Origin: Pristiophorus japonicus
Lineage: Eukaryota
DNA: 64,000 nt
Direction: 5' to 3'
Assembly (NCBI RefSeq): GCF_044704955.1
Contig: NC_091998.1
Location: 58,962,001-59,026,000 of the forward strand
Under the pieces are notes generated by a model. That model ran no database searches, was not told the DNA's origin, and saw only the letters and a program-made list of their open reading frames with translations. The translations under genes were made by a program, and so were the position numbers. Below are positions 2,706 to 63,429 of the stretch, one piece after another (positions within the stretch are counted from its first letter, which is position 1; the number at the start of each line of letters is the position of its first letter).

Positions 2706-3242
2706 GGCAGTATTGGGGGAGGTGCTGCATTCTTGGTCAGGTGCAGTTTCACAGGCGCTGACCATATTTCTCTATCTCAACTAAGTGACCATTCTTTGTG
2801 TATGTATACCAACAGTGTGGGGGTTGTTTCAGCTAAACGATAAAACCAGGCTCTAAATGGGTGAAACGCTAATAATAAATGGGTGACAATTTTGGTCCTA
2901 ATTGCTGATGGCCATAATTGGAACTTATGCCTGATTACCATAATTGGAGGCGCTAAACCAGAAACCGTCAGGTTTAGCACAAGTGCTGATTAGACTCAAT
3001 TTTAGTGAAGCAGTATATGTGGGCTCCTCGCACCCAATTCCACGGAAGATGAGGCGTGCGCTGACTGGCACACAGTGACACGTTGCAGGATGGCTTGGAC
3101 TGAGGGAGGGGGCACGCAGGTTTGTAAGAAATCTTTAAACCCAAAAAAATTGCAAGTTATAAAAGGGATAATAATTCTGCAAAGAGTAGTCTGCCAACTC
3201 AACAGATGAGGGCTCAACAACAACAACAAATTCTATTTATAT

Positions 3243-6200
3243 CATCATCATAGGCAGTCCCTCGGAATCGAGGCAGACTTGCTTCCACTCCTAAAGTGAG
3301 TCCTTTGGTGGCTGAACCATCGTACACGAGAGCCCCAGACCCTGTCACAGGGTGGGACAGACATTTGTCGGGGGAAGTGGGGGTGGGACTGATTTACCAC
3401 ACGCTCCTTCCGCTGCCTGCGCCTGACCACTTTTACACTCGTGGCGTTGAGATTCGAAGAGCTCAATGCCCTCCCGGATGCACTTTCTCCATCTCAGGCG
3501 GTCTTGGGCCAGGGACTCCCAGGTGTCAGTGGTGATATCGCACTTTACCAGGAAGGCTTTGAGGGTGTCCTTGTAACGTTTCCGCTGCCCAGCTTTGGCT
3601 CATTTGCCGTGAAGTAGCTCCGCATAGAGAAATTGCTTAGGGAGTCTCGTGTCTGGCATGCGAAATATGTGGCCTGCCCAGCGAAGCTGATCGAGTGTGG
3701 TCAGTGCTTCAATGCTGAGAATATTAGCCTGGGCAAGGACACTGATGTTGGTGCGCCTGTCTTCCCAGGGGATTTGCAGGATCTTGCGGAGACATCGTTG
3801 GTGATATATCTCCAGCAACTTAAGGTGTCTTCTGTACATCGTCCATGCCTCTGATCCATTCAGGAGGGTGGCTATTATGACAGCCCTGTAGACCATGAGC
3901 TTGGTGATAGATTTGAGGGCGTGGTCTTCAAACACTCTTTTCCTCGGGCAGCCAAAGGCTGCACTGGCGCACTGGAGGCGATGTTGAATCTCCACTTCAA
4001 TGTCTGCCTTTGTTGATAAAAGGCTCTCGAGGTATGGGAAGTGATCCACATTGTCGAGGGCCGCGCCATTAATCTTGATGACTGGGGGGGCAGTGCGGTG
4101 CGGCGAGGACAGGCTGGTGGAGGACCTTTGTCTTACGGATGTTAAGTGTAAGGCCCATGCTTTCATATGCCTCGGTGAATACATCAACTATATCCTGGAG
4201 TTCAGCCTCAGAACGTGCGCAGGCGCAGGCGTCGTCTGCGTACTGCAGCTCAACAACAGAGGTTGGGATTATCTTGGACCTGGCCTGGAGGCGGCGTAGG
4301 TTAAACAGCTTCGCACTGGTTCTGTAGATCCACTCCAGCGGGGAGCTTGTTGACTGTGAGGTTGAGCATGGCAATGAGGAAGATTGAGAAGAGGGTTGGA
4401 GCGATGACACAGCCCTGTTTGACTCCGGTCCGGACGTGGATTGAGTCTGTAATGGAACCAATGGTAAGGATCACGGCCTGCCTGTCGTCGTGGAGCAGGC
4501 GAAGGATGTTGACAAACTTTTGGGGGCATCTAAAATGGAGGAGAATGCTCCACATGCCCTCGTGATTGACAATGTCAAAGCCTTTGTAAGGTTGAAAAAG
4601 GCCATGTATAACGGCTGGCACTGCTCCCTGCATTTTTTCTGCAGCTGTCGCGCTGCAAAGATCATGTCTGTTGTGCCCCATAGAGGTCGAAATCCGCACT
4701 CTAATTCTGGGAGGAGCTCCTCGGCCACAGGGAGAAGTCGATTGAGGAGAACTCTAGCGACAACCTTCCCAGTGGCTGATAACAGGGAGATTGCCCTGTA
4801 GTTGCCGCAGTCGGACTTGACCTTTTTAAAGATGGTCACGATCGCTGCATCTCTGAGATCTCCCGGCATGCTCTCCTCCCTCCAAATGAGAGAGATGAAG
4901 TCATGTATCCGCACCAACAGCGCCTCTCCACCATACCTTAAAGCTTCAGCAGCAATTCCATCTGCACCCGTAGACATGTTATTTTTGTTCTGTTTTATGG
5001 CTTTGCCTACCTCATGCAGCATTGGCGTTTCACTGAGGTGGTGTCGGGTCGCATTCTGCGGGATGGAGTTGAGGACAATCGAGTCAAAGGCAGAGTCTCG
5101 ATTGAGGAGATCTTCAAAGTGCTCCTTCCAGCGGTCCCTGACAGCCCCGGTGTCCTTGATGAGTGTTTCCCCGTTCTTGGCCAGGAGTGGGGTGTGGCCT
5201 TGGGAGTTTGGACCGTAGGCGGCTTTGGACCATAGGCGGCGTTGACTGCAATGAAGAATCCTCGCATATCGTGGCTGTCGGCCAGTTGTTGTATCTCCTG
5301 TGCTTTCTCCATCCACCACCTGTTCTTTAGGTCCCGGGTTTTTTGTTGGACCTCAGCCTTGAGCCGTCTGTAATGTTGTTTTGCAACTCCCGAGTTGGGG
5401 TGTTACTTGAGGCTCAGAAATGCTCTCTGCTTATGATCTATTAGTTCTTGGATCTCCTGATCATTTTTATCAAACCAGTCCTGGTGCTTTCTGGTTGAGT
5501 AACCAAGTGTCTCTTCACAGGCACTGGTTATGGAGACCTGGAGGGAAGACCAAGCACTGTGCGCATTCAGCAACTCAGGGTATTCAAGGCACGCCAGATT
5601 AGCTGTGAGGCACTGGCTGTATACGGCTCTCTTAGCTGGGTTTTTAAGTGTCCTGGTATTAACTTTTTTGGCACTGCTTCTGCTGTCCCCTCTGCTTTGG
5701 GGTTATGTTTATATCGATGATGGATCGGATAAGGCGATGGCCGTCGAGCAGTCGTCAACTTCTGTCATGGCGCGGGTTATGCGCATAACCTTGCGATCCC
5801 TGGCTCGGATGATGACATCGTCAAGCAGGTGCCAGTGTTTGGAGCAAGGGTGTTGCCACGATGCTCTGTATTGTCCCTCAGGTGGAGCAGGCTGTTGGTG
5901 ATGAGGAGTTTATGTTCTAGACATTTTGTCAGGAGTAGGGTACCGCTGGAGTTGGCTTTCGCTACCCCCTCTCGGCCAATCACACCTCCCCAGAGGGCTA
6001 AATCTTTGTCGACCCTGGCATTAAAGTCATCTAGAAGGATCAATTTCTCGCTCATTGGGACGTGGGACAGGGATGTCTCGAGGTTGGAATTAAAAACTCT
6101 CTTTAGCCTCATCCGTTGCATCGAGTGTTGGGGCGTACACACTGATGACAGTGGCGCATTGGTTCTGGGATCGGGTATGGCGAAGAGTCATGAAGTGTTC

Positions 6201-7758
6201 ATTAACCCCGCAGGGGAAATCTTTGAGGCGGTTGACCAGTTGATTTTTGACGGCAAAGCCAACCCCATGAAGGCGGTGTTCTTCCTCTGGTTTTCCTTTC
6301 CAGAAAATGGTGTAACCTCCACCATGTTCCTTGATCTGGCCTTTCCCTGCCCGCCTGGTCTCACTTGGGGCGGCGATGTCAATGTCAAATCCTCTAAGTT
6401 CCCGGGCATCTATGGCCGTGCGGCGTTCCAGCCTGTTGCTGTTGTAATTGTCCATGAGGTTGCTGACGTTCCAGGTCTCGAACTTCATAGTTACGAAGTG
6501 GAAAATGCCTGTGTGTGAGTTCTTTTAACGTGGTGTGGCCGCTGCACACCGGCAACCACTCGGGCTTAGCTGAGCAGGGTCTTGGTTCGGCGGAAAGGGG
6601 GTTTAAGACGACTGGAGACTAGGCACTGCTGTATAAGCCTAATTGCCTACGGCGAGGTGTTGGTCGCAAGCTCAGCGCCGAGTAGTGCCATTGATGGTAG
6701 ATGGCCCGAGGCTTGGTTGGGGGATAGGTGTTAGGAAGGTCAGCAGTCCACTGGGGTTCCGAGGGATGTTTTGGAAAGTTTCTTCCAAGGTTAAAAATTT
6801 CCCCAAAGGTTTCCAAGTTGTTTTAAATGTTTGAATTTAGAAGTATTTCCAGATTATTTTTTTTAAAGTTACACAGGTTGATTGAAGGTTTAATAAATAG
6901 ATTAATAGTTCGTTAAAAGTTGATTAAAAAAACTCTAAACTGTAAATCAAGTTGTTTAAAAGTTAATGTTCACTGCTAGCGACCTAGGGCAGATACAGCC
7001 CGTCGGTGTGCCGGGCTGGCTGATTTAGGTGACCCCGAGTGCGAGGCTGGGTCAGGCCGGCTGGCCGAAGGGACCCAGAGTGCGTCGTTGGGCTGGGCTG
7101 GCTGGCCGAAGGGACCCGGAGTGTGTGGTTGGGCGGGGCCGGCTGGCCGAAGGGACCCGGAGTGTGTCGTTGGGCGGGGCCGGCTGGCCGAAGGGACCCG
7201 GAATGCTGAATGTACTCCCATGATGTACAAAGACCTGGATGGACCACACCTGGAGCACTGCGGGGAAGTAGAGGCCCAGTCATCTCCAGAGGGGGCCCGA
7301 ACGCCTGGACACCGCTGGGGAGAGGTCTCAACACTGCTGGGAGGCCAGCACCTTGGCCCGCTGCAATCCCGGGCCGAATGGCCTCCCCGCTCCCGGCCCG
7401 CGTAAAGCCGATTAGTAAACATCCACAGGGGTCTCAGCACTGAACCAAGCGGCTCCAAGCTCAGATCCCAGGAACTGCAAGAGGGGTATAAATGAAAAAG
7501 CTGACAAGGCCCTAGCACAGACGGTGGAGTGAAGGGCTCCCGAGAGTGGATCTATGGCCTAACACTCTTCCACCAGTGGACCCATGCTGACCCGAGTCTA
7601 ACTCTTGACGGCAACCCCTCCGGCCTAGCGACCCCTCCACTCACTGCACCCTCCCTCCTCTCTGCAGCCTGGTACCGCAGGCCTATACATTCGACAGCCA
7701 CTCCTAAGATATCCGCAGCCTCTCCTGAGCTATCCGCACCCACCGGCCAATCTCCTAG
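3243..7758 (-). mobile_element. RTE-clade LINE, long copy with frameshifted endonuclease-RT ORF (unit 1)
   Basis: Endonuclease N-terminus MKFETWNV...SETR (6090-6488); RT pieces NYRAISLLS...ECGFRP, GVKQGCVIAPTLF, LQYADD and LRWAGH. 3' tail (TGA)n reads atcatcatca on +. 10-bp TSD CTATTTATAT at 3233-3242 and 7759-7768. Confidence 0.9.
7059..7202. repeat. 41-bp GC-rich minisatellite (3 full units + partial)
   Basis: Unit ggctggccgaagggacccggagtgtgtcgttgggcggggcc starts at 7059, 7100, 7141 and 7182. Confidence 0.9.
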
Positions 7759-9002
7759 CTATTTATATAGCGCCTTTAACATAGTGAAACGTCCCAAGGT
7801 GCTTCACAGGAGAATTATGAGATTTTTAACAATTTGACACTGGGCCACATATGTATAAATTAGCTCAGGTAACCAAAAGCTTGGACAAAGAGGTAGGTTT
7901 TAAGGAGCATCTTGAAGGAGGAAAGAGAGGCGGAGAGGTTTAGCCAGGGAGTTTCAGAGCTTGAGGTCTAAGCAATAGAAGACTCGGCCACAAATAGTTG
8001 AGTGATTATGATCAGGGATGCTCAAGAGGTCAGAATTAGAGGAGCACAGACATCTCAGGGGTTGTGGGGCTGGAGGAGATTACAGAGATCGAGAGTAGAT
8101 AGGCTATAAAAGGATTTGAAAATAAGGATGAACATTTTCAAATCCAGGCATTGCTTAACTGGAAGCCAATGTAGATCAGCAAGTACAGGGTTGATGGGCG
8201 AGTGGGACTTGGTGCGAGTTAGAATGAGTTTTGGATCACTCTATTTTACCATAGGGGAGAATGTGGGAGGCCAGCCAGTAGTGGGTTGCAATAGTCAAGT
8301 CTAGAGGTAACAAAGGCATGGATGAGGGCTTCAGCAGTGGAGGAGCTGAGGTAGAGGCAGAGATGAGTGATGTTACAGAAGTGGAAATAGGCGGTCTTCG
8401 TTATGCTGCAGATACGTGGTCGAGAGCTCATTTCAGGGTCAAAGATGACACCAAGGTTGTGAACAGTCTGGTTCAGCCTCAGACAGAAGTTGGGGAGAGG
8501 CATGGAGTCAGTGGCTAAGGAACGGAGTTTGTGCCGGGGACTGAAAACAATGGCTTCAGTCTTCCCAATATTCAATTGAAGAAAGTTCTGCTCATCCGGA
8601 ACTGGATCTTGGACAAGCAGTCTAACATTTTGGAGACTGTGGAGGGGTCGAGAGAAGTGTTGGTGAGGTAGAGCTGGGTGTCATCAGCCTACTTGTGGAA
8701 ACTGACGCTGTGTTTTCGGATGATGTCGCCAAGAGGCAGCATGTCGATGAGAAATAGGAGGGGGCCAAGGATAGATCCTTGGGGGACACCAGAGGTAACG
8801 ATGTGGGGGAGGGAAGAGAAGCCATGGCAGGTGATTCTCTGGCTACGATTAGATGGATTAGAACGGAACCAAACGAGTGCAGTCCCACCCAGCTGGACGG
8901 TGGTGAAGAGGCTTTGGAGAAGATGGAATGGTCAACCGTGTTAAAGGCTGCAAACAGGTCAAGAAGGATGAGGAGGGATAGTTTGCCTTTGTCACAGTCA
9001 CA
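7759..9002 (-). mobile_element. L2-clade LINE 3' fragment (its extreme 3' tail is at ~3216-3242, split off by the RTE); copies 25937-27181 and 44195-45438
   Basis: ORF 8246-8575 NIGKTEAIVF...NLGVIFD...LIHAFVTSRLDYCN is the L2-type RT C-terminus. The uninterrupted tail caacaacaac..tatttatatagcgccttt is visible at 57997-58030. Confidence 0.85.
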
Positions 9003-24300: not shown

Positions 24301-25936
24301 TGACAGTGGCGCATTGGTTCTGGGATCGGGTATGGCGAAGAGTCATGAAGTGTTCATTAACCCCGCAGGGGAAATCTTTGAGGCGGTTGACCAGTTGATT
24401 TTTGACGGCAAAGCCAACCCCATGAAGGCGGTGTTCTTCCTCTGGTTTTCCTTTCCAGAAAATGGTGTAACCTCCACCATGTTCCTTGATCTGGCCTTTC
24501 CCTGCCCGCCTGGTCTCACTTGGGGCGGCGATGTCAATGTCAAATCCTCTAAGTTCCCGGGCATCTATGGCCGTGCGGCGTTCCAGCCTGTTGCTGTTGT
24601 AATTGTCCATGAGGTTGCTGACGTTCCAGGTCTCAAACTTCATAGTTACGAAGTGGAAAATGCCTGTGCGTGAGTTCTTTTAACGTGGTGTGGCCGCTGC
24701 ACACCGGCAACCACTCGGGCTTAGCTGAGCAGGGTCTTGGTTCGGCGGAAAGGGGGTTTAAGACGACTGGAGACTAGGCACTGCTGTATAAGCCTAATTG
24801 CCTACGGCGAGGTGTTGGTCGCAAGCTCAGCGCCGAGTAGTGCCATTGATGGTAGATGGCCCGAGGCTTGGTTGGGGGATAGGTGTTAGGAAGGTCAGCA
24901 GTCCACTGGGGTTCCGAGGGATGTTTTGGAAAGTTTCTTCCAAGGTTAAAAATTTCCCCAAAGGTTTCCAAGTTGTTTTAAATGTTTGAATTTAGAAGTA
25001 TTTCCAGATTATTTTTTTTTAAAGTTACACAGGTTGATTGAAGGTTTAATAAATAGATTAATAGTTCGTTAAAAGTTGATAAAAAAAACTCTAAACTGTA
25101 AATCAAGTTGTTTAAAAGTTAATGTTCACTGCTAGCGACCGAGGGCAGATACAGCCCGTCGGTGTGCCGGGCTGGCTGATTTAGGTGACCCCGAGTGCGA
25201 GGCTGGGTCAGGCCGGCTGGCCGAAGGGACCCAGAGTGCGTCGTTGGGCTGGGCTGGCTGGCCGAAGGGACCCGGAGTGTGTGGTTGGGCGGGGCCGGCT
25301 GGCCGAAGGGACGCGGAGTGTGTCGTTGGGCCGGGCCGGCTGGCCGAAGGGACCGGGAGTGTGTCGTTGGGCGGGGCCGGCTGGCCGAAGGGCTGGCTGA
25401 ATGTACTCCCATGATGTACAAAGACCTGGATGGACCACACCTGGAGCACTGCGGGGAAGTAGAGGCCCAGTCATCTCCAGAGGGGGCCCGAACGCCTGGA
25501 CACCGCTGGGGAGAGGTCTCAACACTGCTGGGAGGCCAAACACCTTGGCCCGCTGCAATCCCGGGCCGAATGGCCTCCCCGCTCCCCGATTAGTACACAT
25601 CCACAGGGGTCTCAGCACTGAACCAAGCGGCTCCAAGCTCAGATCCCAGGAACTGCAAGAGGGGTATAAATGAAAAAGCTGACAAGGCCCTAGCACAGAC
25701 GGTGGAGTGAAGGGCTCCCGAGAGTGGATCTATGGTCTAACACTCTTCCGCCAGTGGACCCATGCTGACCCGAGTCTAACTCTTGACGGCAACCCCTCCG
25801 GCCTAGCGACCCCTCCACTCACTGCACCCTCCATCCTCTCTGCAGCCTGGTACCGCAGGCCTATACATTCGACAGCCATTCCTGAGATATCCGCAGCCTC
25901 TCCTGAGCTATCCGCACCCACCAGCCAATCTCCTAG
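21399..25936 (-). mobile_element. RTE-clade LINE (unit 2 copy)
   Basis: Same element; TSD 21389-21398 / 25937-25946; extra 1-bp deletion near 21860. Confidence 0.9.
25215..25392. repeat. 41-bp minisatellite (4 full units + partial)
   Basis: Units at 25215, 25256, 25297, 25338 and 25379. Confidence 0.9.
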
Positions 25937-28900
25937 CTATTTATATAGCGCCTTTAACATAGTGAAACGTCCCAAGGTGCTTCACAGGAGAATTATGAGA
26001 TTTTTAACAATTTGACACTGGGCCACATATGTATAAATTAGCTCAGGTAACCAAAAGCTTGGACAAAGAGGTAGGTTTTAAGGAGCATCTTGAAGGAGGA
26101 AAGAGAGGCGGAGAAGTTTAGCCAGGGAGTTTCAGAGCTTAAGGTCTAAGCAATAGAAGACTCGGCCACCAATAGTTGAGCGATTATGATCAGGGATGCT
26201 CAAGAGGTCAGAATTAGAGGAGCACAGACATCTCAGGGGTTGTGGGGCTGGAGGAGATTACAGAGATAAGAGAGTAGATAGGCTATAAAAGGATTTGAAA
26301 ATAAAGTTGAACATTTTCAAATCCAGGCATTGCTTAACTGGAAGCCAATGTAGATCAGCAAGTACAGGGTTGATGGGCGAGTGGGACTTGGTGCGAGTTA
26401 GAATGAGTTTTGGATCACTCTATTTTACCGTAGGGGAGAATGTGGGAGGCCAGCCAGTAGTGGGTTGCAATAGTCAAGTCTAGAGGTAACAAAGGCATGG
26501 ATGAGGGCTTCAGCAGTGGAGGAGCTGAGGTAGAGGAAGAGATGAGTGATGTTACGGAAGTGGAAATAGGCGGTCTTCGTTATGCTGCAGATACGTGGTC
26601 GAGAGCTCATTTCAGGGTCAAAGATGACACCAAGGTTGTGAACAGTCTGGTTCAGCCTCAGACAGAAGTTGGGGAGAGGCATGGAGTCAATGGCTGAGGA
26701 ACGGAGTTTGTGCCTGGGACTGAAAACAATGGCTTCAGTCTTCCCAATATTCAATTGAAGAAAGTTCTGCTCATCCGGAACTGGATCTTGGACAAGCAGT
26801 CTAACATTTTGGAGACTGTGGAGGGGTCGAGAGAAGTGTTGGTGAGGTAGAGCTGGGTGTCATCAGCGTACTTGTGGAAACTGACGCTGTGTTTTCGGAT
26901 GATGTCGCCAAGAGGCAGCATGTCGATGAGAAATAGGAGGGGGCCAAGGATAGATCCTTGGGGGACACCAGAGGTAACGATGTGGGGGAGGGAAGAGAAG
27001 CCATGGCAGGTGATTCTCTGGCTACGATTAGATAGATTAGAACGGAACCAAACGAGTGCAGTTCCACCCAGCTGGACGGTGGTGGAGAGGCATTGGAGAA
27101 GATGGAATGGTCAACCGTGTCAAAGGCTGCAGACAGGTCAAGAAGGATGAGGAGGGATAGTTTGCCTTTGTCACAGTCACAGTCTTGCTGGTATTATTGA
27201 GTTATCTTAGCCCAGCCTTTTTAATGACTGATAGTTTCTGGGAAATAAAATGTTTGATTTTATTTTTATCTATTGAAAACGCCCAAGTTCCCGCTCACTC
27301 CTCCCTTCCAGCCCTGACCTCATTCCTGCTACTTCAGGCGAGAGACAAATTTGAAAATTTAAATGAAGCCTCCCTCCTCACCATCAGAATATTTTCCAAT
27401 TACGGTTGTTGGAGTGTTAGTCTCTTTTTCGGGAGACTTAACAGCAAACTGCTTGCCAGTGAAATCTCGGGGTTGATTTTAACTCGGGCGGGATGAGGGG
27501 AGCCCGGAGCGGGCGGTGCACCTATACATCATGAAGGAAGTGAGGCCTGACTGATTTTAACCCCTCCCACACACTGTTCCTGCGCAGCGGGGTGGGGTTA
27601 ACATCGACCCCCCCCCCCACATGTTTTGTGCCATTCATTTCAACTTTAGCTTTGCCCGATGGCTCAGTTGATAAAGGCAACATGAAGCTGAGCTGTACAG
27701 ACCAGAGTGGTCTGAGGATTGAGCCCCAGTTTGTGCTGGGTTAGTTGATCCCACTAGGGGTAGCAGCAGGGATGTTATGATTGGCTTAACGGCCTCTGGA
27801 TTAGGGAGGGTTCCCATTCCCATTCACTGTCCAGCAATCCTTGCTGGGAAGGGTGGGTGTGTTGATGTTTGAGGAGGACAGGATCCGACTCGCCTGCTTA
27901 CTGTCTGGGATCACACATGAGACCACTGGGGCAAGATATCTGAGGGCAGATACTGTGCCTCAGCAAGAGTCGATGCCGTCAAGAGGGAAGGAAAGGGGAG
28001 AATTGATTTAAAAATGTAAACCCCACAAAGTTGTTGGGGATAATTTTCTGGCAATGTGTTCCTAGCTCGAGACTCACCAACAGGGGATCAAATATTGGAC
28101 GTTTGTGCGCGAACTTCATGATTTACCGACTATTTACATTAATGATTTGTTAATCAAGCACAGTGCGTCCCATGATTTTTGATGTAACCATTTTACTTAT
28201 TTTCATAATTTGCAGACTTTTCATCATTTCATGTTGTGGTAAACCTCTCGTGTTACACTTTGCGGAGACTAGTGGCAAAGGAATTAAAACTTTCCATTAA
28301 GAAAGCAGCATGAGTCATTGTTTTATGGGAGATAGGGCTCAGGTAGGTGAAACAACGGCAGCAGTTAGGCCATGAACTCTTTCAACGCCATTGGTCCCAA
28401 TTTTAACTCGGGCAGGAATTGGGTGCTTGAGGCAAATAGCAAACCCATTTGAACTCATAGCCTTACCTACGAGCAGGGTTAAAATCGCCCTGACGTGTAT
28501 CCGGGGTGGGGCAAGCCTAGATATTATCTGTGTGTGTAATAAAAACAGAAAATGCTGCAAATATCCAGCAGCTCTTCCGGAACCTGTTCTGAGAAAGGCT
28601 AGGTTCATGCGTCCATTGTTCAGCAGAACATGGTCGCCTCGCGTAGCATTAACTTGGCTTTTCTCATCATCGATTGCGATCGACCTGCTGTGTATTTCAG
28701 GCATTATTGTTTCCAGTATTCCTTCTGTTTCTCATTTTAGAGATGGGTGCCACACAATTCCTCAGGAATTTACTCAGTAGGCGACTGTTGGAACCCTCAT
28801 AGAATAGGGCTAGACCTGGTTACATAGGATTAGCGGGAGGCCATTCAGCCCCTCGAATCTGCTCCGCCATTCACTTCAATCATGGCTGATCTGCACCTCA

Positions 28901-42600: not shown

Positions 42601-44194
42601 GATTTTTGACGGCAAAGCCAACCCCATGAAGGCGGTGTTCTTCCTCTGGTTTTCCTTTCCAGAAAATGGTGTAACCTCCACCATGTTCCTTGATCTGGCC
42701 TTTCCCTGCCCGCCTGGTCTCACTTGGGGCGGCGATGTCAATGTCAAATCCTCTAAGTTCCCGGGCATCTATGGCCGTGCGGCGTTCCAGCCTGTTCCTG
42801 TTGTAATTGTCCATGAGGTTGCTGACGTTCCAGGTCTCGAACTTCATAGTTACGAAGTGGAAAATGCCTGTGCGTGAGTTCTTTTAACGTGGTGTGGCCG
42901 CTGCACACCGGCAACCACTCGGGCTTAGCTGAGCAGGGTCTTGGTTCGGCGGAAAGGGGGTTTAAGACGACTGGAGACTAGGCACTGCTGTATAAGCCTA
43001 ATTGCCTACGGCGAGGTGTTGGTCGCAAGCTCAGCGCCGAGTAGTGCCATTGATGGTAGATGGCCCGAGGCTTGGTTGGGGGATAGGTGTTAGGAAGGTC
43101 AGCAGTCCACTGGGGTTCCGAGGGATGTTTTGGAAAGTTTCTTCCAAGGTTAAAAATTTCCCCAAAGGTTTCCAAGTTGTTTTCAATGTTTGAATTTAGA
43201 AGTATTTCCAGATTATTTTTTTTAAAGTTACACAGGTTGATTGAAGGTTTAATAAATAGATTAATAGTTCGTTAAAAGTTGATTAAAAAAACTCTAAACT
43301 GTAAATCAAGTTGTTTAAAAGTTAATGTTCACTGCTAGCGACCGAGGGCAGATACAGCCCGTCGGTGTGCCGGGCTGGCTGATTTAGGTGACCCCGAGTG
43401 CGAGGCTGGGTCAGGCCGGCTGGCCGAAGGGACCCAGAGTGCGTCGTTGGGCTGGGCTGGCTGGCCGAAGGGACCCGGAGTGTGTGGTTGGGCGGGGCCG
43501 GCTGGCCGAAGGGACCCGGAGTGTGTCGTTGGGCCGGGCCGGCTGGCCGAAGGGACCGGGAGTGTGTCGTTGGGCCGGTCCGGCTGGCCGAAGGGACCCG
43601 GAGTGTGTCGTTGGGCGGGGCCGGCTGGCCGAAGGGCTGGCTGAATGTACTCCCATGATGTACAAAGACCTGGATGGACCACACCTGGAGCACTGCGGGG
43701 AAGTAGAGGCCCAGTCATCTCCAGAGGGGGCCCGAACGCCTGGACACCGCTGGGGAGAGGTTTCAACACTGCTGGGAGGCCAAACACCTTGGCCCGCTGC
43801 AATCCCGGGCCGAATGGCCTCCCCGCTCCCGGCCCGCGTAAAGCCGATTAGTAAACATCCACAGGGGTCTTAGCACTGAACCAAGCGGCTCCAAGCTCAG
43901 ATCCCAGGAACTGCAAGAGGGGTATAAATGAAAAAGCTGACAAGGCCCTAGCACAGACGGTGGAGTGAAGGGCTCCCGAGAGTGGATCTATGGCCTAACA
44001 CTCTTCCACCAGTGGACCCATGCTGACCCGAGTCTAACTCTTGACGGCAACCCCTCCGGCCTAGCGACCCCTCCACTCACTGCACCCTCCCTCCTCTCTG
44101 CAGCCTGGTACCGCAGGCCTATACATTCGACAGCCACTCCTGAGATATCCGCAGCCTCTCCTGAGCTATCCGCACCCACCGGCCAATCTCCTAG
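39602..44194 (-). mobile_element. RTE-clade LINE (unit 3 copy)
   Basis: Same element; TSD 39592-39601 / 44195-44204. Confidence 0.9.
43418..43636. repeat. 41-bp minisatellite (5 full units + partial)
   Basis: Units at 43418, 43459, 43500, 43541, 43582 and 43623. Confidence 0.9.
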
Positions 44195-47100
44195 CTATTT
44201 ATATAGCGCCTTTAACATAGTGAAACGTCCCAAGGTGCTTCACAGGAGAATTATGAGATTTTTAACAATTTGACACTGGGCCACATATGTATAAATTAGC
44301 TCAGGTAACCAAAAGCTTGGACAAAGAGGTAGGTTTTAAGGAGCATCTTGAAGGAGGAAAGAGAGGCGGAGAGGTTTAGCCAGGGAGTTTCAGAGCTTGA
44401 GGTCTAAGCAATAGAAGACTCGGCCACAAATAGTTGAGTGATTATGATCAGGGATGCTCAAGAGGTCAGAATTAGAGGAGCACAGACATCTCAGGGGTTG
44501 TGGGGCTGGAGGAGATTACAGAGATCGAGAGTAGATAGGCTATAAAAGGATTTGAAAATAAGGATGAACATTTTCAAATCCAGGCATTGCTTAACTGGAA
44601 GCCAATGTAGATCAGCAAGTACAGGGTTGATGGGCGAGTGGGACTTGGTGCGAGTTAGAATGAGTTTTGGATCACTCTATTTTACCATAGGGGAGAATGT
44701 GGGAGGCCAGCCAGTAGTGGGTTGCAATAGTCAAGTCTAGAGGTAACAAAGGCATGGATGAGGGCTTCAGCAGTGGAGGAGCTGAGGTAGAGGCAGAGAT
44801 GAGTGATGTTACAGAAGTGGAAATAGGCGGTCTTCGTTATGCTGCAGATACGTGGTCGAGAGCTCATTTCAGGGTCAAAGATGACACCAAGGTTGTGAAC
44901 AGTCTGGTTCAGCCTCAGACAGAAGTTGGGGAGAGGCATGGAGTCAGTGGCTAAGGAACGGAGTTTGTGCCGGGGACTGAAAACAATGGCTTCAGTCTTC
45001 CCAATATTCAATTGAAGAAAGTTCTGCTCATCCGGAACTGGATCTTGGACAAGCAGTCTAACATTTTGGAGACTGTGGAGGGGTCGAGAGAAGTGTTGGT
45101 GAGTTAAAGCTGGGTGTCATCAGCCTACTTGTGGAAACTGACGCTGTGTTTTCGGATGATGTCGCCAAGAGGCAGCATGTAGATGAGAAATAGGAGGGGG
45201 CCAAGGATAGATCCTTGGGGGACACCAGAGGTAACGATGTGGGGGAGGGAAGAGAAGCCATGGCAGGTGATTCTCTGGCTACGATTAGATAGATTAGAAC
45301 GGAACCAAACGAGTGCAGTCCCACCCAGCTGGACGGTGGTGGAGAGGCATTGGAGAAGATGGAATGGTCAACCGTGTTAAAGGCTGCAGACAGGTCAAGA
45401 AGGATGAGGAGGGATAGTTTGCCTTTGTCACAGTCACAGTCTTGCTGGTATTATTGAGTTATCTTAGCCCAGCCTTTTTAATGACTGATAGTTTCTGGGA
45501 AATAAAATGTTTGATTTTATTTTTATCTATTGAAAACGCCCAAGTTCCCGCTCACTCCTCCCTTCCAGCCCTGACCTCATTCCTGCTACTTCAGGCGAGA
45601 GACAAATTTGAAAATTTAAATGAAGCCTCCCTCCTCACCATCAGAATATTTTCCAATTACGGTTGTTGGAGTGTTAGTCTCTTTTTGGGGGGACTTAACA
45701 GCAAACTGCTTGCCAGTGAAATCTCAGGGTTGATTTTAACTCGGGCGGGATGAGGGGAGCCCGGAGCGGGCGGTGCACCTATACATCATGAAGGAAGTGA
45801 GGCCTGACTGATTTTAACCCCTCCCGCACACCGTTCCTGCGCAGCAGGGTGGGGTTAACATCGACCCACCCCCACCCCCCCCCCCACATGTTTTGTGCCA
45901 TTCATTTCAACTTTAGCTTTGCCCGATGGCTCAGTTGGTAAAGGCAACATGAAGCTGAGCTGTACAGACCAGAGTGGTCTGAGGATTGAGCCCCAGTTTG
46001 TGCTGGGTTAGTTGATCCCACTAGGGGTAGCAGCAGGGATGTTATGATTGGCCTAACGGCCTCTGGATTAGGGAGGGTTCCCATTCCCATTCACTGTCCA
46101 GCAATCCTTGCTGGGAAGGGTGGGTGTGTTGACGTTTGATGAGGACAGGATCCGACTCGCCTGCTTACTGTCTGGGATCACACATGAGACCACTGGGGCA
46201 AGATATCTGAGGGCAGATACTGTACCTCAGCAAGAGTCGATGCCGTCAAGAGGGAAGGAAAGGGGAGAATTGATTTAAAAATGTAAACCCCACAAAGTTG
46301 TTGGGGATAATTTTCTGGCAATGTGTTCCTAGCTCGAGACTCACCAACAGGGGATCAAATATTGGACGTTTGTGCGCGAACTTCATGATTTACCGACCAT
46401 TTACAATAATGATTTGTTAATCAAGCACAGTGCGTCCCCAGATTTTTGATATAACCATTTTACTTATTTTCATAAATTGCAGGCTTTTCATCATTTCACG
46501 TTGTGGTAAACCTCTTGTGTTACACTGTGCGGAGACTAGTGGCAAAGGAATTAAAACTTTCCATTAAGAAAGCAGCATGTGTCACTGTTTTATGGGAGAT
46601 AGGGCTCAGGTAGGTGAAACAACGGCAGCAGTTAGGCCATGAACTCTTGCACCGCCGTTGGTCCCAATTTTAACTCGGGCAGGAATTGCGTGCTTCAGGA
46701 GAATGGCAAACATATTTGAACTCAGGGCCTTACCTACGAGCAGGATTATAATCGCCCTGAAGTGTTTCCGGGGTGGGGCAAGCCTAGAAATATCCAGCAG
46801 CTCTTCCGGAACCTGTTCTGAGAAAGGATAGGTTAATGCGTCCGTTGTTCAGCAGAACATGGTTGCCTCGGGAAGCATTAACTTGGCTTTTCTCATCACC
46901 GATTGTGATAGACCTGCTGTGTATTTCAGGCATTATTGTTTCTTTTTCAGATTTCCAGCATTCCTTATGTTTCTCATTTTAGAGACGGGTGCCACACAAT
47001 TTCTCAGGAATTTACTCTGTGGGCGACTGTTGGAACCCCCATAGAATAGCGCTAGACCTAGTTACATAGGAATAGGGGGAGGCCATTCAGCCCCTCGAGC

Positions 47101-55397: not shown

Positions 55398-56135
55398 TTT
55401 TAAGTTTTCTTTCAAACACATTAGTTTCCTTTTTCATTTTCACACATTTCCTTAAAAATGTTGCTTGGGGTAAAAAACATGAAGCACGCACCATTGCTGC
55501 AGTAGGAAAAGCTCTTCCATTCCCAACTGATTCTTTGCAGTCTCCACAGTATCGCGTTTGCTCACTTTTCTCACCCTCTGTTGGGCAGCTCCAGAATGTT
55601 TGTTTTTACATTCTCTCCTGAAGAAAGAAAGATTTGCATTTCTATCGTCGCTTCCACCAGCTCAGGACGTCCCAAAGCCCTTCGCAGTCAATTAACCATT
55701 GTAATGTGGGAAACACAGCAGCCAAATTCCGCACAGCAAGCTCCAAAAACAGCAGTGCAGATAATGAGCAGATAATCTGATAGTTAGTGATGTTGATTGA
55801 GGGATAAATAATGGCCAGGACACCAGGAAAGCTCCCCCTGCTTTTCTTCAAATGGCACCGTGGGACCTTTTCTATGCACCTGAGAGGTGGGCCCTCACTT
55901 TAACCTCTCATTCAAAAGACGGCCCCTCCGGCAGTGCAGCACTGGGTGTCAGCCTGGATTGTATGCTGAAGTCTCCGGACTGGAGCTCCGGGACTGAGAC
56001 GAGAGTGCTGCCACTGAGCCAAGGCTGACACTCGGCAGTATTGGGGGAGGTGCTGCATTCTTGGTCAGGTGCAGTTTCACAGGCGCTGACCATATTTCTC
56101 TATCTCAGCTAAGTGACCATTCTTTATGTATGTAT

Positions 56136-57573
56136 TCAACCTCCCAGCATCTAACCACATAATTTTCCTCGGTACCTGCATCCTGGAACATCTTCCATTC
56201 CATCACCCTCAATAACCCATGCTTTATAAAGTGGAAGATAACATGAACTACATAAACATAATAAAAAACACTGATTTACATTTTACACACAAATGCACAT
56301 AATTAAATGCAAAAATATCACTAATATTCTCACAATGGAATGCAGTAGAAATACAATATAACCTTTTCAATCAGTGGTCCTGCTTGGCATATTGTAATAC
56401 TAGGTGGGATTAAAAAAACTACTTTCCAACTTAGCAGGAGTAATATGGGAGATCTGCTAGTGTATTTCACCATGTAGTGCAAATGTTCTATCCCTTGCAA
56501 CTTAATTGTTTTTTTTTAAATAGACTCATGACAGTATCTCATACACTTTCTCAGAATCTCAAAACTGTGAAAATCTTTACCTTCCTCGGTCTACTCTTTC
56601 TCCTGCAATCTATTGTACCAGATTTTAAAACCCAAGGTAGGCTTTACTTAAGAGCTACACCTTGACTTATCAAGCATATTTCACCCTCATTGACTGTTGT
56701 CAAAATTGGTCAAATCCTGCACCTAGATTTTTCAGCTCAGTTTAGGAATGAGTAATTTAGAAATTTTAAATAGTGACTCTGGGGAGAAATCTTTAAATTG
56801 GCTAAGAACCAACGGAGGGTATTCTAATCGGTAAGAAGTCTGGTGGAATTTAAATGGCATTTAAAATTGATAAACCAATAAACAATGGCATGATTATTGT
56901 TCTGATGCTTGTTGCACCTGCAGCCACAGTTTTAAAAAACTTTCAGAAGGGGAAAAGTTTGCCGCCTTGGTGGCGTCCATTAGTGCCAGTAGATGGTGCT
57001 AGTTTGGCATTGAGACCAGTACTGACTGCTGCATGCCAAATCGGTAACAGCTTATTGCCGGGGACCTCAATGCCAGGGAGGTGGTGACATGAGTATGCAA
57101 CGCTCACTGAATGCCGGTTTTCACAAATTGCTTTTAAACACTTACCTCACCACCTGGAGTAGACACTAACAGGGAGAGCTGGCGTGCAGCACCAGGAAAC
57201 CAGCTGCAGGAACGTTACTTAAAGACTGTGGAGGGACATGATTGGGGCCCAGGGGAGGCGCGAGTTCGGGGCCAGGGGCCCAGGGGCAGAACGAGCCAGC
57301 CCACACAGCAATATGTGTGCGCACTAGGTGCAGAGAACTGCTCTCCAGTCGTCTTGGGTAATCCTTGCCACTGAACCAAGACTTAGCTCTGTCAAGCCCA
57401 TGTGATGGCTGGTGTGCAACGGCCACGACACGTTATAAAAATTCACGCACAGGCACCTTCCACCCTTCAGGATGTAGTTCGGGTCCTTCATTGAAACACC
57501 TGTGAACTCATCCTCTTTTTGGCGTGGAAGCAAGTCATCCTCGATTCGAGGGACCACCTATGATGATGATGAT
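56136..57573 (+). mobile_element. 1.44-kb insertion ending in a non-autonomous RTE-derived element
   Basis: Absent from units 1-3, where tgtat|accaacagtgtgg is contiguous (~2803-2820). Ends gtggaagcaagtcatcctcgattcgagggaccaccta(tga)n, matching the RTE 3' end; 57340-57480 matches the RTE sequence just upstream of its ATG. Confidence 0.75.
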
Positions 57574-58148
57574 ACCAACAGTGTGGGGGTTGTTTTAGCC
57601 AAAGGATAAAACCAGGCTCTAAATGAGTGCTACGCTAATAATAAATGGGTGCCCACCTGTTTGAAAGTCTGGGTTCAGCACACAATTTTGGTCCCAATTG
57701 CTGATTACCATAATTGGAACTTGCCTGGAGGCGCTAATCCAGAAACCGTCAGGTTCAGCACAAGTACTGATTAGACGGAATTTTAGTGAAGCTCCTCGCA
57801 CCCAATTCCACGGAAGGTGTGGCGTGCGCTGGCTGGCACACAGCGACACGTTGCAGGATGGCTCAGACTGAGGGAGAGGGCGCACAGGTTTGTAAGAAAT
57901 CTTTAAACCCAAAGAAATTGCAAGTTATAAAAAGGATAATAATTCTGCAAAAAGTAGGTCTGCCAACTCAGCAGATGAGGGCTGGCTCACATCAGACAAC
58001 AACAACAACTTGTATTTATATAGCGCCTTTAACATAGTGAAATGTCCCAAGGCGCTTCACAGGAGAATTGTGATATTTAAAAAAATTTGAAACCGGGCTG
58101 CATAAGTATAAATTAGCTCAGGTGACCAAAAGCTTGGACAAAGAGGTA

Positions 58149-61117
58149 AAGATAGAAACATAGAAACATAGAAAATAGGTGCAGGAGTAGGCCATTCGGC
58201 CCTTCGAGCCTGCACCACCATTCAATAAGATCATGGCTGATCATTACCTCAGTACCCCTTTCCTACTTTCTCTCCATACCCCTTGATCCCCTTAGCCGTA
58301 AGGGCCATATCTAACTCCCTCTTGAATATATCCAATGAATTGGCATCAACAACTCTCTGCGGCAGGGAATTCCACAGGTTAACAACTCTCTGAATGAAGA
58401 AGTTTCTCCTCATCTCAGTCCTAAATGGCCTACCCCTTATCCTAAGACTGTGTCCCCTGGTTCTGGACTTCCCCAACATCGGGAACATTCTACCCGCATC
58501 TAACCTGTCCAGTCCCGTCAGAATCTTATATGTTTCTATGAAATCCCCTCTCATCCTTCTAAACTCCAATGTATAAAGGCCCAGTTGATCCAGTCACTCC
58601 TCATATCACAGTCCAGCCATCCCGGGAATCAGTCTGGTGAACCTTCGCTGCACTCCCTCAATAGCAAGAACGTCCTTCCTCAGATTAGGAGACCAAAACT
58701 GAACACAATATTTCAGATGAGGCCTCACCAACACCCTGTACAACTGCAGTAAGACCTCCCTACTCCTGTACTCAAATCCCCTAGCTATGAAGGCCAACAT
58801 ACCATTTGCCTTCTTCACCGCCTGATGTACCTGCATGCCAACTTTCAATGACCGATGAACCATGACACCCAGGACTCATTGCACCTCCCCTTTTCCTAAT
58901 CTGTCACCATTCAGATAATATTCTGTCTTCGCGTTTTTGCCCCCAAAATGGATAACCTCACATTTATCCACATTATACTGCATCTGCCATGCATTTGCCC
59001 ACTCACCTAACCTGTCCAAGTCACCCTGCAGCCTCTTAGCGTCCTCCTCACAGCTCACACCACCACCCAGTTTAGTGTCATCTGCAAACTTGGAGATATT
59101 ACACTCAATTCCTTCATCTAAATTAATGATGTATATTGTAAAGATCTAGGGTCCCAGCACTGAGCCCTGCGGCACTCCACTAGTCACTGCCTGCCATACT
59201 GAAAAGGACCCATTTATCCCAACTCTCTGCTTCCTGTCTGCCAACCAGTTCTCTATCCACGTCAGCATATTACCCCCAATATCATGTGCTTTGATTTTGC
59301 ACACCAATCTCTTGTGTGGGACCTTGTCAAAAGCCTTTTCAAAGTCCAAATACACCACATCCACTGGTTCCCCCTTGTCCACTCTACTAGTTACATCCTC
59401 AAAAAATTCCAGAAGATTTGTCAAGCATGATTTCCCTTTCATAAATCCATGCTGACTTGGACTGATCCTGTCACTGTTTTCCAAATGGGCTGCTATTTCA
59501 TCCTTAATAATTGATTCCAACATTTTCCCCACTACTGATGTCAGGCTAACCGGTCTATAATTACTGGCTTTCTCTCTCCCTATCTTTTTAAAAAGTGGTT
59601 TTACATCAGCTATCTTCCAGTCCATAGGAATTGATCCAGAGTCGATAGACTGCTGGAAAATGATCATCAATGCATCCACTATTTCTAGGGCCACTTCCTT
59701 AAGTAATCTGGGATGCAGACTGTCAGGCCCCAGGGATTTATCGGCCTTCAATCCCATCAATTTCCCTAACACAATTTCCCGCCTAATAAGGATATCCTTC
59801 AGTTCTCCCTTCTCACTAGACCCTCGGTCCCATGTACTTCCGGAAGGTTATTTGCGTCTTCCTTCGTGAAGACAGAACCAAAGTATTTGTTCAATTGGTC
59901 TGCCATTTCTTTGTTCCCCATTATAAATTCACCTGAATCTGACTGCAAGGGACCTACGTTTGTCTTCACTAATCTTTTTCTCTTCACATATCTATAGAAG
60001 CTTTTGCAGTCAGTTTTTATGTTCCCGGCAAGCTTCTTCTCATACTCTATTTTCCCCCTCTTAATTAAACCTTTTGTCCTCCTCTGCTGAATTCTAAATT
60101 TCTCCCAGTCCTCAGGTTTGCTGCTTTTTCTGGCCAATTTATCTGCCTCTTTCTTGGATTTAACACTATCCTTAATTTCCCTTGTTAGCCACGGTTGAGC
60201 CACCTACCCCGTTTTATTTTTACTCCAGACAGGGATGTACAATTGCTGAAGTTCATCCATATGATCTTTAAATGTTTGCCATTGCCTATCCACAGTCAAC
60301 CCTTTAAGTATCATTTGCCAGTCTATTCTGGCCAATTCACGCCTCAAACCATCGAAGTTACCTTTCCTTAAGTTCAGGACCTTAGTTTCTGAATTAACTG
60401 TGTCACTCTCCATCTTAGTAAAGAATTCTACCATGTTATGGTCACTCTTCTCCAAGGGGCCTTGCACAACAAGATTGCTAATTAGTCCTTTCTCATTACA
60501 CATCACCCAGTTTGGGTTGCCAGCTCCTTAGTTGGTTCCTCGACAGATTGGTCGAGAAAACCATCCCTAATACATTCCAGGAAATCCTCCTGCACCGCAT
60601 TACTCCCAGTTTGGTTCGCCCAATCAATATGTAGATTAAAGTCACCCATGATAACTGCTGTACCTTTATTGCACACATCCCTTATTTCTTGTTTGATGCT
60701 ATCCCCAACCTCACTACTACTGTTTGGTGGTCTGTACACAACTCCCACAAGCATTTTCTGCCCTTTGGTACTCTGTAGCTCCACCCATACTGATTCCACA
60801 TCATCCAAGCTAATGTCCTTTCTTACTATTGCATTAATTTCCTCTTTAACCAGCAATGCCACCCCGCCTGCTTTTCCTTTCTGTCTATCCTTCCTAAATG
60901 TTGAATATCCCTGGATGTTGAGTTCCCAGTCTTGGTCACCCTGGAGCCATGTCTCCGTGATGCCAATTACATCATAATGGCTATCTGCGCAGTTAATTCG
61001 TCCACCTTATTCCGAATACTTCTCGCATTGAGGCACAGAGCTTTCACACTTGTCTTTCTAACACACATTGCCCCTTTAGAATTTTGCTGTAATGTGGTCC
61101 TTTTTGCTTTTTGCCTT
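58149..61117 (-). mobile_element. CR1-clade (HER1-like) LINE, ~3 kb, covering a disrupted ORF2
   Basis: Endonuclease LCLNARSIRNK, GVVYRPP, MGDFN, SDHN; RT NYRPVSLTS, YLDFEKAFD, GVPQGSVLGP; (TTTCTATG)n tail. TSD AGGTA at 58144-58148 and 61118-61122. Confidence 0.92.
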
Positions 61118-61503
61118 AGGTAGCTTTTAAGGAGCATCTTGAAGGAGGAAAGAGAGGTAGAGAGGCGGAAAGGTTTAGGCAGGGAGTTGCAGAGCTTGAG
61201 GCCCAGGCAACAGAAGGCACGGTCAGCGATGGTTGAGCAATTATAATCAGGGATGCTCAAGAGGGCAGAATTAGAGGAGCACAGACATCTCAGGGGGTTG
61301 TGGGGCTGGAGGAGATTACAGAGATAGGGAGGGGTGAGGCTATGGAGGGATTTGAAAATAAGGATGAGAATTTTGAAATCCAGGTGTTGCTTTACCGGAA
61401 GCCAATATAAGTCAGCAAGCACAGGGTTGATGTGTGAGTGGGGCTTGGTACGGGTTAGGACACGGGCAGCCGAGTTTTGGATCACCTCTAGTTTACGTAG
61501 GGT

Positions 61504-61750
61504 CATCATCATAGGCGGTCCCTCAAAACGAGGATGACTTGCTCCACGCCAAAAAAAGGATAAGTTCACAGGTGTTTCATAAGAAGAACCCGAACTACAT
61601 CCTCAAGGGTTGAAGATACCTGTGCGTGGATTTTTTTAACGTGTGGTGGCCGTTGTGCACCAGCCACCACACGGGCTTGACAGAGCTAGGTCTTGGTCTA
61701 GTGGCAAGGATTACCCAAGACAACTGGAGACCTGCTCTGCTGCATGGACC
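61504..61750 (-). mobile_element. Non-autonomous RTE-derived element (5'-truncated)
   Basis: The reverse complement aligns with 57325-57573; (TGA)n tail seen as catcatcatagg. Confidence 0.8.
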
Positions 61751-62456
61751 ACAGACACACACAGACACACACAGACAGGGGGACGGTGCAACCCAATGGC
61801 TCACAGAGCTTGACCACAAAGCGGAACAATCGGACAGCGACACGCACTCATTGGCCGACCGAGCGGCTGCAATGCCCAGCCACGTCCACAATGGTCTCTG
61901 GTATTCAGGGCGAAGATCTCGAGGGGCCTATAGTACTGGGGAGGGAGGCGGGGGTGGAGGGAAGGAGAGACGGGTCCCGAACTCCCGCCGCCCTCCCTCA
62001 CGTGGTCTTGGCCTTCCCGCCGGGCGCTGCGACCGGCTGAGATTGACCAAGGCGTCCCGGATCAGGATACTCGGGATCACGATCCACAGGCCGTTGAGGA
62101 AGTTGAAGTAGAACCAGAAGTGGAGCGGGTGCCCGAACTCGCTGTGGATGAAGCCGTCCCGATAGTGCAGTAGGTCGCCGTACAGCTGGCCCAGGGACAT
62201 GATGAGTTGCAGGAAAAAGCAGTATGGGTTATTCTGCAGGAAGGCAATGAAAGTCCAAACACTCAGCAGGCCCCTTAGCCCAGGCACTGACGATCTCCAT
62301 GCACACCGTGAAGTTGTCCACAGTGATATATCTGCTGCCCCCCCTTAGCATATTCCTTCCAGATCTGGGAGAGCAGCGATTGGTTCTGGGCCAGGCCTGA
62401 CTGCCGGACGGAGAACCAGCCCTCGAGCATCAGGTGCAGGGAGGCACAGAGTAGGA
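61751..62456 (-). pseudogene. ebp: Processed pseudogene of emopamil-binding protein (sterol delta8-delta7 isomerase), 5'-truncated, with probable 3'UTR
   Basis: Minus strand reads LHLMLEGWF...SLLSQIWKEYAKG/SRYITVDNFTVCME.../LSVWTFIAFLQNNPYCFFLQLIMSLGQLYGDLLHYRDGFIHSEFGHPLHFWFYFNFLNGLWIVIP. This matches EBP (SQLWKEYAKGDSRY..DNFTVCME, GQIYGD, GHPLYFWFYF). No introns; two frameshifts and a short in-frame deletion. Confidence 0.88.
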
Positions 62457-63429
62457 TAGGGTAGAATGTGGGAGGCCAGCCAGGAGTGGGTTGGAATAAT
62501 CAAGTCCAGAGGTAACAAAGGCATGGATGAGGGTTTCAGCAGAGAATGAGACGCCGTTGCTGGTGATTCTCTGGCTATGATTAAATAGGTAAGAATGGAA
62601 TCAGACGAGTGCAGTCCCACCCAGCTGGACGACGGTGGAGAGGCGTCGGAGCAGGATGGAATGGTCAACTGTGTCAAAGGCTGCAGACAAGTCAACAAGG
62701 ACAAGAAAGGTTAGTTTGCCTTTGTCACAGTCTCGAAGGATGTCATTTGTTACTTTGATGAGAGCCGTTTCGGTACTGTGGCAGGCGTGGAAACCAGATT
62801 GGAGGGATTCAAACATTGAATTCCGGGAAAGATGGGCACGGATTTGGGAGGCGACAACACGTTCAAGGACTTTGGAGAGGAAAGGAAGGTTGGAGATTTG
62901 GCTTTAGTTTGCAAGGACCGAGGGGGTCAAGGGTTGTTTTTTTTACGGAGAGGGGTGATGACGGTGGATTTGAGGGAGAGGGGGACAGTACCTGAGGAGA
63001 GAGAACCATTAACAATGTCAGCTAACATGGGAACGAGAAAGGGAAGTTGGGTGGTCAACAGTTTGGTGAGAATAGGGTCAAGGGAGCAGGAAGTGGGTCT
63101 CATGGACAGGATGAGCTGAAAAAAGCCATGAGGGGAGATCGGAGAGAAACTGGAGAAAAGATGCAAGTTCAGGGGTAGGGCAGGGGGATCCTTAGAGGAA
63201 GATTGACCCGGTGGGCTAGGGGAAGGAAGAGAAGAGGCAAAGGCGGCCGAATGGATGGTGTCAATCTTAGAGACAAAGAAGTCCATGAGCTCCTCACACT
63301 TATTGTCGGAGGTGAGGGTGGAAACTGGGGGAGGGGTTTAAAAGGTTAAAAGTGCAGAATAGAAGTCGGGGTTTATCTTTACATTCCAGAATGATTCTGG
63401 GATAGTGAGCGATTTTGGCAGATATAATT

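Follow-up and report, generated by a model that had tools for sequence, protein, structure and literature searches.

A processed EBP pseudogene with an RTE-type tail inside one target-site duplication in Pristiophorus japonicus

Here we describe a chimeric retrocopy in Pristiophorus japonicus, located on the minus strand at 61504-62456 of a 64,000-nucleotide stretch (NCBI RefSeq assembly GCF_044704955.1, contig NC_091998.1, positions 58,962,001 to 59,026,000 of the forward strand), which is called the window below and whose own positions are used throughout. The insert is a processed pseudogene of the cholesterol-pathway gene EBP and is 5'-truncated, intronless and decayed. It ends in a tail related to RTE-type retrotransposons, has no poly(A), and lies in an L2-type long interspersed element (LINE) within one 6-bp target-site duplication (TSD). 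Very probably, a host mRNA was retroposed here by RTE machinery without poly(A), whether the tail already stood in the 3' untranslated region (UTR) of the parental mRNA or was joined to it in one chimeric event. A first-pass annotation of the window, made from the letters alone, had proposed such an RTE-driven retroposition in a single event, and it is supported by the one TSD, the family 3' terminus of the tail and the missing poly(A). The comparison in that annotation was with mammals, which is refined here in that the host is a cartilaginous fish.

The insert and its empty target site

Read along the minus strand, the insert consists of about 5 extra bases, the EBP coding part with its stop codon, about 250 nt of 3'UTR including a 28-bp microsatellite, and a 247-nt repeat with a (TGA)3 end. 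It is enclosed by TAGGGT at 62457-62462 (5' copy of the TSD, minus strand) and at 61498-61503 (3' copy, minus strand), and the match extends on neither side. In element orientation the TSD reads ACCCTA; it starts with A, and this base doubles as the last letter of the final TGA in the tail.

The L2 runs uninterrupted across the site in 3 of 3 tandem units of the window (near 8250, at 26431-26436 and near 44686), where a single copy of the motif is found with one base changed. This is a true empty site, because the tandem units and the region around the EBP insert share one and the same L2 insertion, spread by segmental duplication. In 4 of 4 runs, other L2 copies gave contigs whose loose ends at 62456/62457 read on into the left flank. 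The empty sites fix the insert junctions independently of the TSD; a 6-base match at these fixed junctions has a probability of about 3e-4 under the local composition. The annotated single insert between two TAGGGT motifs in an L2 was therefore borne out by the TSD, the empty sites and the L2 contigs together, and a TSD at an empty site is what a processed pseudogene should have.

The contig comparison used 4 of the 7 runs listed, namely X1 and X3 (DNA, one sample), X5 and X6, and covered 61660-62500, except for 61747-61783 with its 1 gap, 1 joint and 30 loose-end rows. In 2 of 2 DNA runs, contigs covering 61722-62089 and 62073-62483 have 0 differences from the window.

Neither a 3' poly(A) nor the A-rich target of an L1-type retrocopy was found, the target being ACCCTA, and the locus is not an L1-type retrocopy. 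The insert contains no poly(A): its longest stretch of A on the sense strand has 7 bases and lies within the tail, and AATAAA and ATTAAA are both absent. A TSD of at least 6 bases belonging to the tail alone, which had been named in advance as the sign of a later independent insertion, was looked for and not found; the sole 6-base match is the outer duplication. At the 5' junction, the ~5 bases at 62452-62456 (minus strand), delimited by the protein alignment, look like target-like extra letters resembling a recopied target, not like EBP.

The EBP copy, its tail and a second genomic copy

The EBP piece matches the Pfam family PF05241 (E 1.6e-13), and its best protein matches come from sharks, with the EBP of Pristiophorus japonicus itself (P0089) as the closest named one. 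The coding remnant spans 61998-62451 on the minus strand and corresponds to residues ~101-262 of P0089, with an identity of 78% over the 5' piece and 81% over the 3' piece. Using tblastn, residues 101-248 of P0089 are covered in three frames over 62451-62018, and frameshifts are the sole interruptions. The C-terminus APGGKAKTT agrees with the end of P0089 and is followed by a stop codon at 62000-61998, directly after which the 3'UTR begins (61778-61997, minus strand). We take vertebrate EBP to have three introns within the copied span, as in the human gene (a literature search gave no paper).

In X5 and X6, the 3'UTR segment 61806-61926 and the EBP coding part lie on one contig (18 other letters among 121), and the X6 contig is colinear with the copy over 62024-62384, where 30 letters differ and 14 are gap letters. 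This contig is without the extra bases at 62276 and 62339, and has the 12 letters lost from the copy near 62164-62174. The kind of run is not on record for X5 and X6; we infer that they are RNA, because there is one deep contig with an intact frame, and its residues agree with P0089. The two runs share a species label, and X5-X7 were chosen by label, at 0.03 of words. Their EBP contigs align only as far as 61806, with 44 and 52 further letters beyond, and the alignment does not include 62385-62456. Among the contigs listed in X1 and X3, no DNA contig has the X5/X6 letters; neither this nor the limits of the X5/X6 alignments were counted as evidence. With X5 and X6 read as RNA, the copy is colinear with a spliced mRNA and has no introns, and the intronless, 5'-truncated EBP with 3'UTR that had been annotated is confirmed by PF05241, P0089 and the colinearity with X6.

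The copy is disabled and decaying. Single bases were inserted at 62339 and 62276, while 12 nt were lost near 62164-62174 and 26-27 nt near 62024. Compared with X6 at the sites given, 23 codons differ, 14 of which are replacements. When 134 codons are compared with P0089 and five further chondrichthyan EBPs, 23 are found to differ, of which 16 are copy-derived, 3 parent-derived and 4 unpolarised.

P0089 itself is unusually divergent, at 66-69% to the five other chondrichthyan EBPs, and has a long Gly/Arg-rich N-terminal half as well as an altered loop at residues 115-123. A separate divergent EBP paralogue was considered as the donor of the 5' 70 nt and rejected, since P0089 itself is divergent there and is 78% identical to the copy. 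In Heptranchias perlo there are two near-identical EBP-like records (P0006 and P0090) on different contigs, one of them flagged as low quality.

The tail had been described as a 5'-truncated RTE-derived piece. Its derivation and truncation hold, but it is more than a 3' piece: judged from its letters, it is a bipartite RTE-type non-autonomous element, a short interspersed element (SINE) composed of an RTE 5'UTR part and an RTE 3' end. The 3'-end-derived part (61504-61560, minus strand) ends in (TGA)3 and gives a 54-column alignment with the 3' end of an RTE-type LINE at ~3241-3295. The 5'UTR-derived part (61561-61750, minus strand; similarity at 61591-61745) is 5'-truncated compared with another copy at ~57220-57571, and is about 74% identical to 6473-6618 (over ~150 nt), 24653-24773 and 42832-42977, which are leaders running into an endonuclease open reading frame (ORF). 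Between the UTR and the SINE lies the microsatellite (TGTGTGTCTG)2.8 at 61750-61777 (minus strand), a 10-mer repeat with 1-2 bases in common with the SINE. The microsatellite junction, the (TGA)n tail and the missing poly(A) had thus been annotated correctly.

The element belongs to a repetitive family. Two copies are present in the window, the tail being 88.5% like the second copy at 57329-57569 (11.5% apart), and many distinct contigs cover 61660-61746 in 4 of 4 runs. The same (TGA)n terminus is shared by 5 of 5 tail motifs identified in the window, and the tail's 3' end coincides with the 3' ends of the RTE-type LINE and of the second SINE copy. With regard to a tRNA, 5S or 7SL head, as expected of a Pol III SINE, the Rfam scan gave nothing at gathering score in the window and nothing credible at 56000-62600, where both SINE copies may be 5'-truncated; a ribozyme or small-RNA head was not found by Rfam, with only low-scoring miRNA-type hairpin matches at 61925-62013. 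No 3' stem-loop above shuffles appeared in 3 of 3 termini folded, and viral and metagenome contigs gave 0 matches to a 24-base SINE motif. The stretch 61635-61750 (minus strand), in the 5'UTR-derived part, folds far beyond its shuffles (-54.9 kcal/mol, z -5.25, 0 of 200) and has no Rfam match; an overlapping but shifted stretch of the LINE leader has no excess folding (z 1.17).

A second genomic copy, called the sister here, is seen in a 381-letter DNA contig (record 7 in X1 and record 15 in X3), which is aligned from its first letter over 61723-61981 with 23 other letters and 15 gap letters. It joins 62024 through about 69 letters, against 42 in the window, and is without the 26-27 nt deletion of the window copy. 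It starts 28 letters inside the SINE, close to the start of the window's own contig (61722), and likely shares the UTR-SINE junction. A two-copy model agrees within 0.1 with 7 of 7 X1 depth bins checked and within 2.1 with X3. In X3, a depth of about 2 is left over at 62024-62065. Coverage of the sister reaches only ~62109 in both DNA runs, which would fit a shorter, independent 5' truncation, although such a hole proves nothing. The sister was also considered as the annotated parent and rejected, for it agrees with X5/X6 at no more than 3 of the 11 UTR sites listed and its codon 220 differs from P0089.

The distance between sister and window copy is 9.4% (~9% diverged), half of which is 4.7% per lineage. 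The replacement divergence of the window copy is estimated at ~5% per replacement site (16 changes in ~300 sites), near half the sister distance, so the two copies would have parted at about the time when the window copy left selection. This is as expected if each copy came from intact mRNA. Sites where both copies differ from the parent can be explained because the parent kept changing, as 3 parent-derived residues indicate.

Origin of the chimera

The account that we favour, to which we give an even chance, is that the processed pseudogene arose by target-primed reverse transcription of the RTE clade, with the SINE already present in the parental 3'UTR as a handle. In the parental EBP gene, a bipartite non-autonomous RTE element, 5'-truncated and sense-oriented, would have stood in the 3'UTR immediately after a TG-rich microsatellite. 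An RTE protein would then have recognised the 3' end of this element in the spliced mRNA, as stringent LINEs are known to recognise 3' ends, and primed at (TGA)n on a nicked L2 target; because priming was at the (TGA)n repeat, no poly(A) would have been copied. The cDNA would have run through the SINE, the UTR (~250 nt) and part of the spliced coding sequence (~450 nt) before an early stop, with ~5 extra bases and a 6-bp duplication, an anatomy that is observed at the locus, as is the later decay of the copy. The sister probably came from the same tagged mRNA.

In support of this account, one TSD encloses EBP and tail together, at a site which is empty in the duplicated L2 copies. Priming at the SINE repeat by an RTE protein is suggested because the 3' end lies exactly on the family terminus and overlaps by one base with the TSD, whose first letter is A. 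A TSD that starts with A and has one base in common with the tail is the pattern of animal RTE elements, with which this locus agrees (PMC6007223).

Several points weigh against it. The parental 3'UTR sequence was read only to 61806, short of the SINE junction, so the residence of the SINE in the parental gene is a presumed step. The rule for bridging a junction was 31 letters and the sister has 28 on the SINE side, and X1 and X3 are one sample, possibly the source of the window. Segmental duplications abound in this region, so the sister may have arisen from a single insertion by duplication of the DNA. Among 11 listed UTR differences from X5/X6, 8 are absent among the differences of the sister (P 0.11 against equal rates), a pattern equally compatible with a common pseudogene ancestor and with a fast-changing parent. 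The 6-bp TSD is just under the range of 7-15 bp reported for the majority of RTE LINEs (PMC6007223), the 3' 57 nt of the SINE fold no better than shuffles (z -0.29), and the RTE-type LINE of the window, only ~74% like the 5' part of the SINE, is a relative and not a proven partner.

The SINE and the mRNA may instead have been joined in one chimeric event, which we regard as quite possible but less probable. Reverse transcription would have started on free SINE RNA, copied 247 nt and switched to EBP mRNA at the TG-rich microsatellite, or the two RNAs would have been ligated or spliced; the product would later have been recopied by segmental duplication or by a second RTE round via its new tail. 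The SINE part is 5'-truncated, 1-2 bases are common to both sides of the junction, and TGTGTG lies just upstream in the second SINE copy, all of which are in keeping with such a switch, as is the fact that at 8 of 11 UTR sites both copies are set apart from the X5/X6 contig. There are also precedents: platypus U6 chimeras with L2, RTE-like LINEs and SINEs are described as template switches, 5'-truncated and with TSDs of 1-9 bp (PMC4476161), and mRNA-L1 5' chimeras are known without an L1 in the parent gene (10.1101/2025.02.02.635956). Splicing is weakly hinted at by an AG that precedes the junction in the second SINE copy and in the RTE 5'UTR, but no pyrimidine tract stands before this AG. However, this course requires a rare switch and a recopying close in time (~5% copy-derived replacement against 4.7% per lineage), no shared disabling change was seen between the two copies, and the sister is without the 26-27 nt deletion of the window copy. 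The first-pass annotation had left template switching and an element in the parental 3'UTR side by side, and we lean to the latter.

It is improbable that two separate events took place, with a poly(A)-primed or internally primed L1/Tx1-type retrocopy first and a SINE later inserted at its 3' end or converting it. Retrocopies are plentiful in cartilaginous fishes (14,081, or 5.4% of annotated loci), those outside mammals being ascribed by correlation to CR1/Tx1 (10.64898/2026.06.26.734816), and tailless L1 retropseudogenes of mRNAs exist in mammals (PMC5322556). At this locus, however, neither a poly(A) remnant nor a tail-only TSD is present, and the SINE terminus abuts the TSD exactly, with the first TSD base in common. 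An assembly artefact or chance juxtaposition is very improbable. The region is repeat-rich and tandemly duplicated, and the matching contigs, from a sample in which the window may have its source, extend just 27-29 letters beyond the junctions; yet these contigs show 0 differences in both DNA runs, and a TSD at a site empty in the paralogues is not expected from misassembly.

Beyond this locus, sense RTE-type SINEs in the 3'UTRs of sharks might act as a general cis handle, by which a stringent LINE copies mRNAs and read-through transcripts without poly(A), repeatedly for the same gene. They could then account for a sizeable share of the ~14,000 retrocopies of cartilaginous fishes, with the EBP sister and the block at 56136-57571 as further products. 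We consider this extension rather unlikely and offer it only tentatively. The earlier description of the locus as a route to retrogenes goes too far, since this pseudogene is dead and one locus with one partly seen sister is all that stands behind the general statement.

Related systems and surrounding repeats

This single EBP locus works like known chimeras and is at the same time a processed pseudogene. For example, spliced host exons stand 5' of a retroelement in the 5' transductions of SVA elements, as they do in mRNA-L1 chimeras. The human mRNA-L1 5' chimeras (17 cases) have sense spliced host exons 5' of the retroelement within one TSD (10.1101/2025.02.02.635956), but they involve L1 with poly(A) and mostly first exons with a near full-length L1, while here last exons and 3'UTR are followed by a short RTE SINE with a (TGA)n end. 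The chimeras U6-L2, U6-RTE and U6-SINE likewise join a 5'-truncated cellular RNA to the 3' end of a stringent LINE or SINE, with a short TSD and no poly(A); in contrast to the mRNA found here, their cellular part is U6 snRNA, they are ascribed to template switching, the opossum RTE cases have no clear TSD, and no mRNA case was seen among them (PMC4476161).

A bipartite build is typical of RTE-derived SINEs (PMC5786205, PMC7245038). RTESINE1/2, WALLSI3, Bov-A and SINE1-1_EBu are like the tail in having an RTE 5'UTR part, an RTE 3' end and a microsatellite terminus, and are known to gain 5' heads from other RNAs (PMC5786205, PMC7245038). Such SINEs have a small-RNA head and form high-copy families, whereas here a spliced protein-coding mRNA with its 3'UTR takes this place and 2 copies are seen. 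Platypus snoRTE/PlatSINE1 also combines a host RNA at the 5' side with an RTE-derived 3' part (PMC7245038), but its host RNA is a snoRNA and it is a uniform SINE family, not a dead mRNA copy. LTR-mediated retrocopies are another poly(A)-independent way to copy mRNA with a retroelement; they have LTR pieces on both sides and need two switches, in contrast to the single non-LTR 3' handle and TSD of the EBP locus (PMC5131818). In the literature searches, with most subscription journals outside reach, an RTE-SINE tail on a spliced protein-coding mRNA was not met with.

Stringent LINEs are held to require their own 3' end, and this is the usual explanation of why retrocopies are scarce under CR1, L2 or RTE (PMC5470649, PMC3747384, PMC4476161); cartilaginous fishes hold many retrocopies despite this expectation. 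In the retrocopy survey (10.64898/2026.06.26.734816), machinery is assigned only by correlation with CR1/Tx1 content, and the term "RTE" is absent from the main text. The EBP locus gives a countable signature, namely a spliced mRNA, then a SINE, then (TGA)n, within one short TSD, which bears on the open question of which machinery makes shark retrocopies. It suggests that elements such as this RTE SINE can serve as handles by which a choosy retrotransposon copies host genes. If the signature is common, the SINE content of 3'UTRs, and not just expression, would determine which shark genes are retrocopied, and RTE units with an mRNA head might give rise to new SINE families; if it is rare, the locus is one more chimeric retrocopy.

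The LINEs of the window provide the context of the insert, and their clade names L2 and CR1 are our assumption from their motifs. The host L2-type LINE (58013-63410, minus strand) is split by the EBP insert and a CR1-type LINE into 58013-58148, 61118-61497 and 62463 to ~63410; the CR1-type LINE at 58149-61117 has a 5-bp TSD (58144-58148 and 61118-61122). At 3243-7758 (minus strand) lies an RTE-type LINE that is decayed but almost complete in length and has a TSD of 9-10 bp, with copies also from 21397 and 39600 in the other tandem units; it is a relative of the likely mobilising family. It has a short leader and an endonuclease-first ORF with a reverse transcriptase (RVT_1, E 2.9e-07). The best match of its endonuclease (73%) is a sawshark "craniofacial development protein 2-like" protein, and many matches are endonuclease-reverse transcriptase proteins of 1,040-1,130 aa; we take CFDP2 to be an RTE endonuclease, and on this reading the LINE would belong to the RTE clade. 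The LINE sits in the 3' end of the same L2, and has about 1.2 kb upstream of its ORF, including a 41-bp GC-rich minisatellite.

The second SINE copy (~57220-57571) belongs to the block 56136-57571 (plus strand), whose ~1.1 kb of DNA upstream of the SINE is unique in the window. This 1,436-bp block is missing at the paralogous site in 3 of 3 units and ends exactly in the (TGA)n tail of the SINE. Only 2 bases are duplicated at its ends, and its flanks are of unlike age (~98% and 93% to the units). The block may be another 5'-extended SINE insertion, or the units may have undergone a microhomology deletion between two similar TG/TA-rich repeats, and it carries no weight in the probabilities given above. 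The segment 57572-62732 is an older paralogue of part of a unit, with a divergence from it of 6.8% in the flank and of 9-14% in the L2 pieces. Positions 1-56135 form the tandem array itself, with units of ~18.2 kb that are 96-98% identical and consist mostly of LINE pieces and minisatellites (41-bp and 67-68-bp units).

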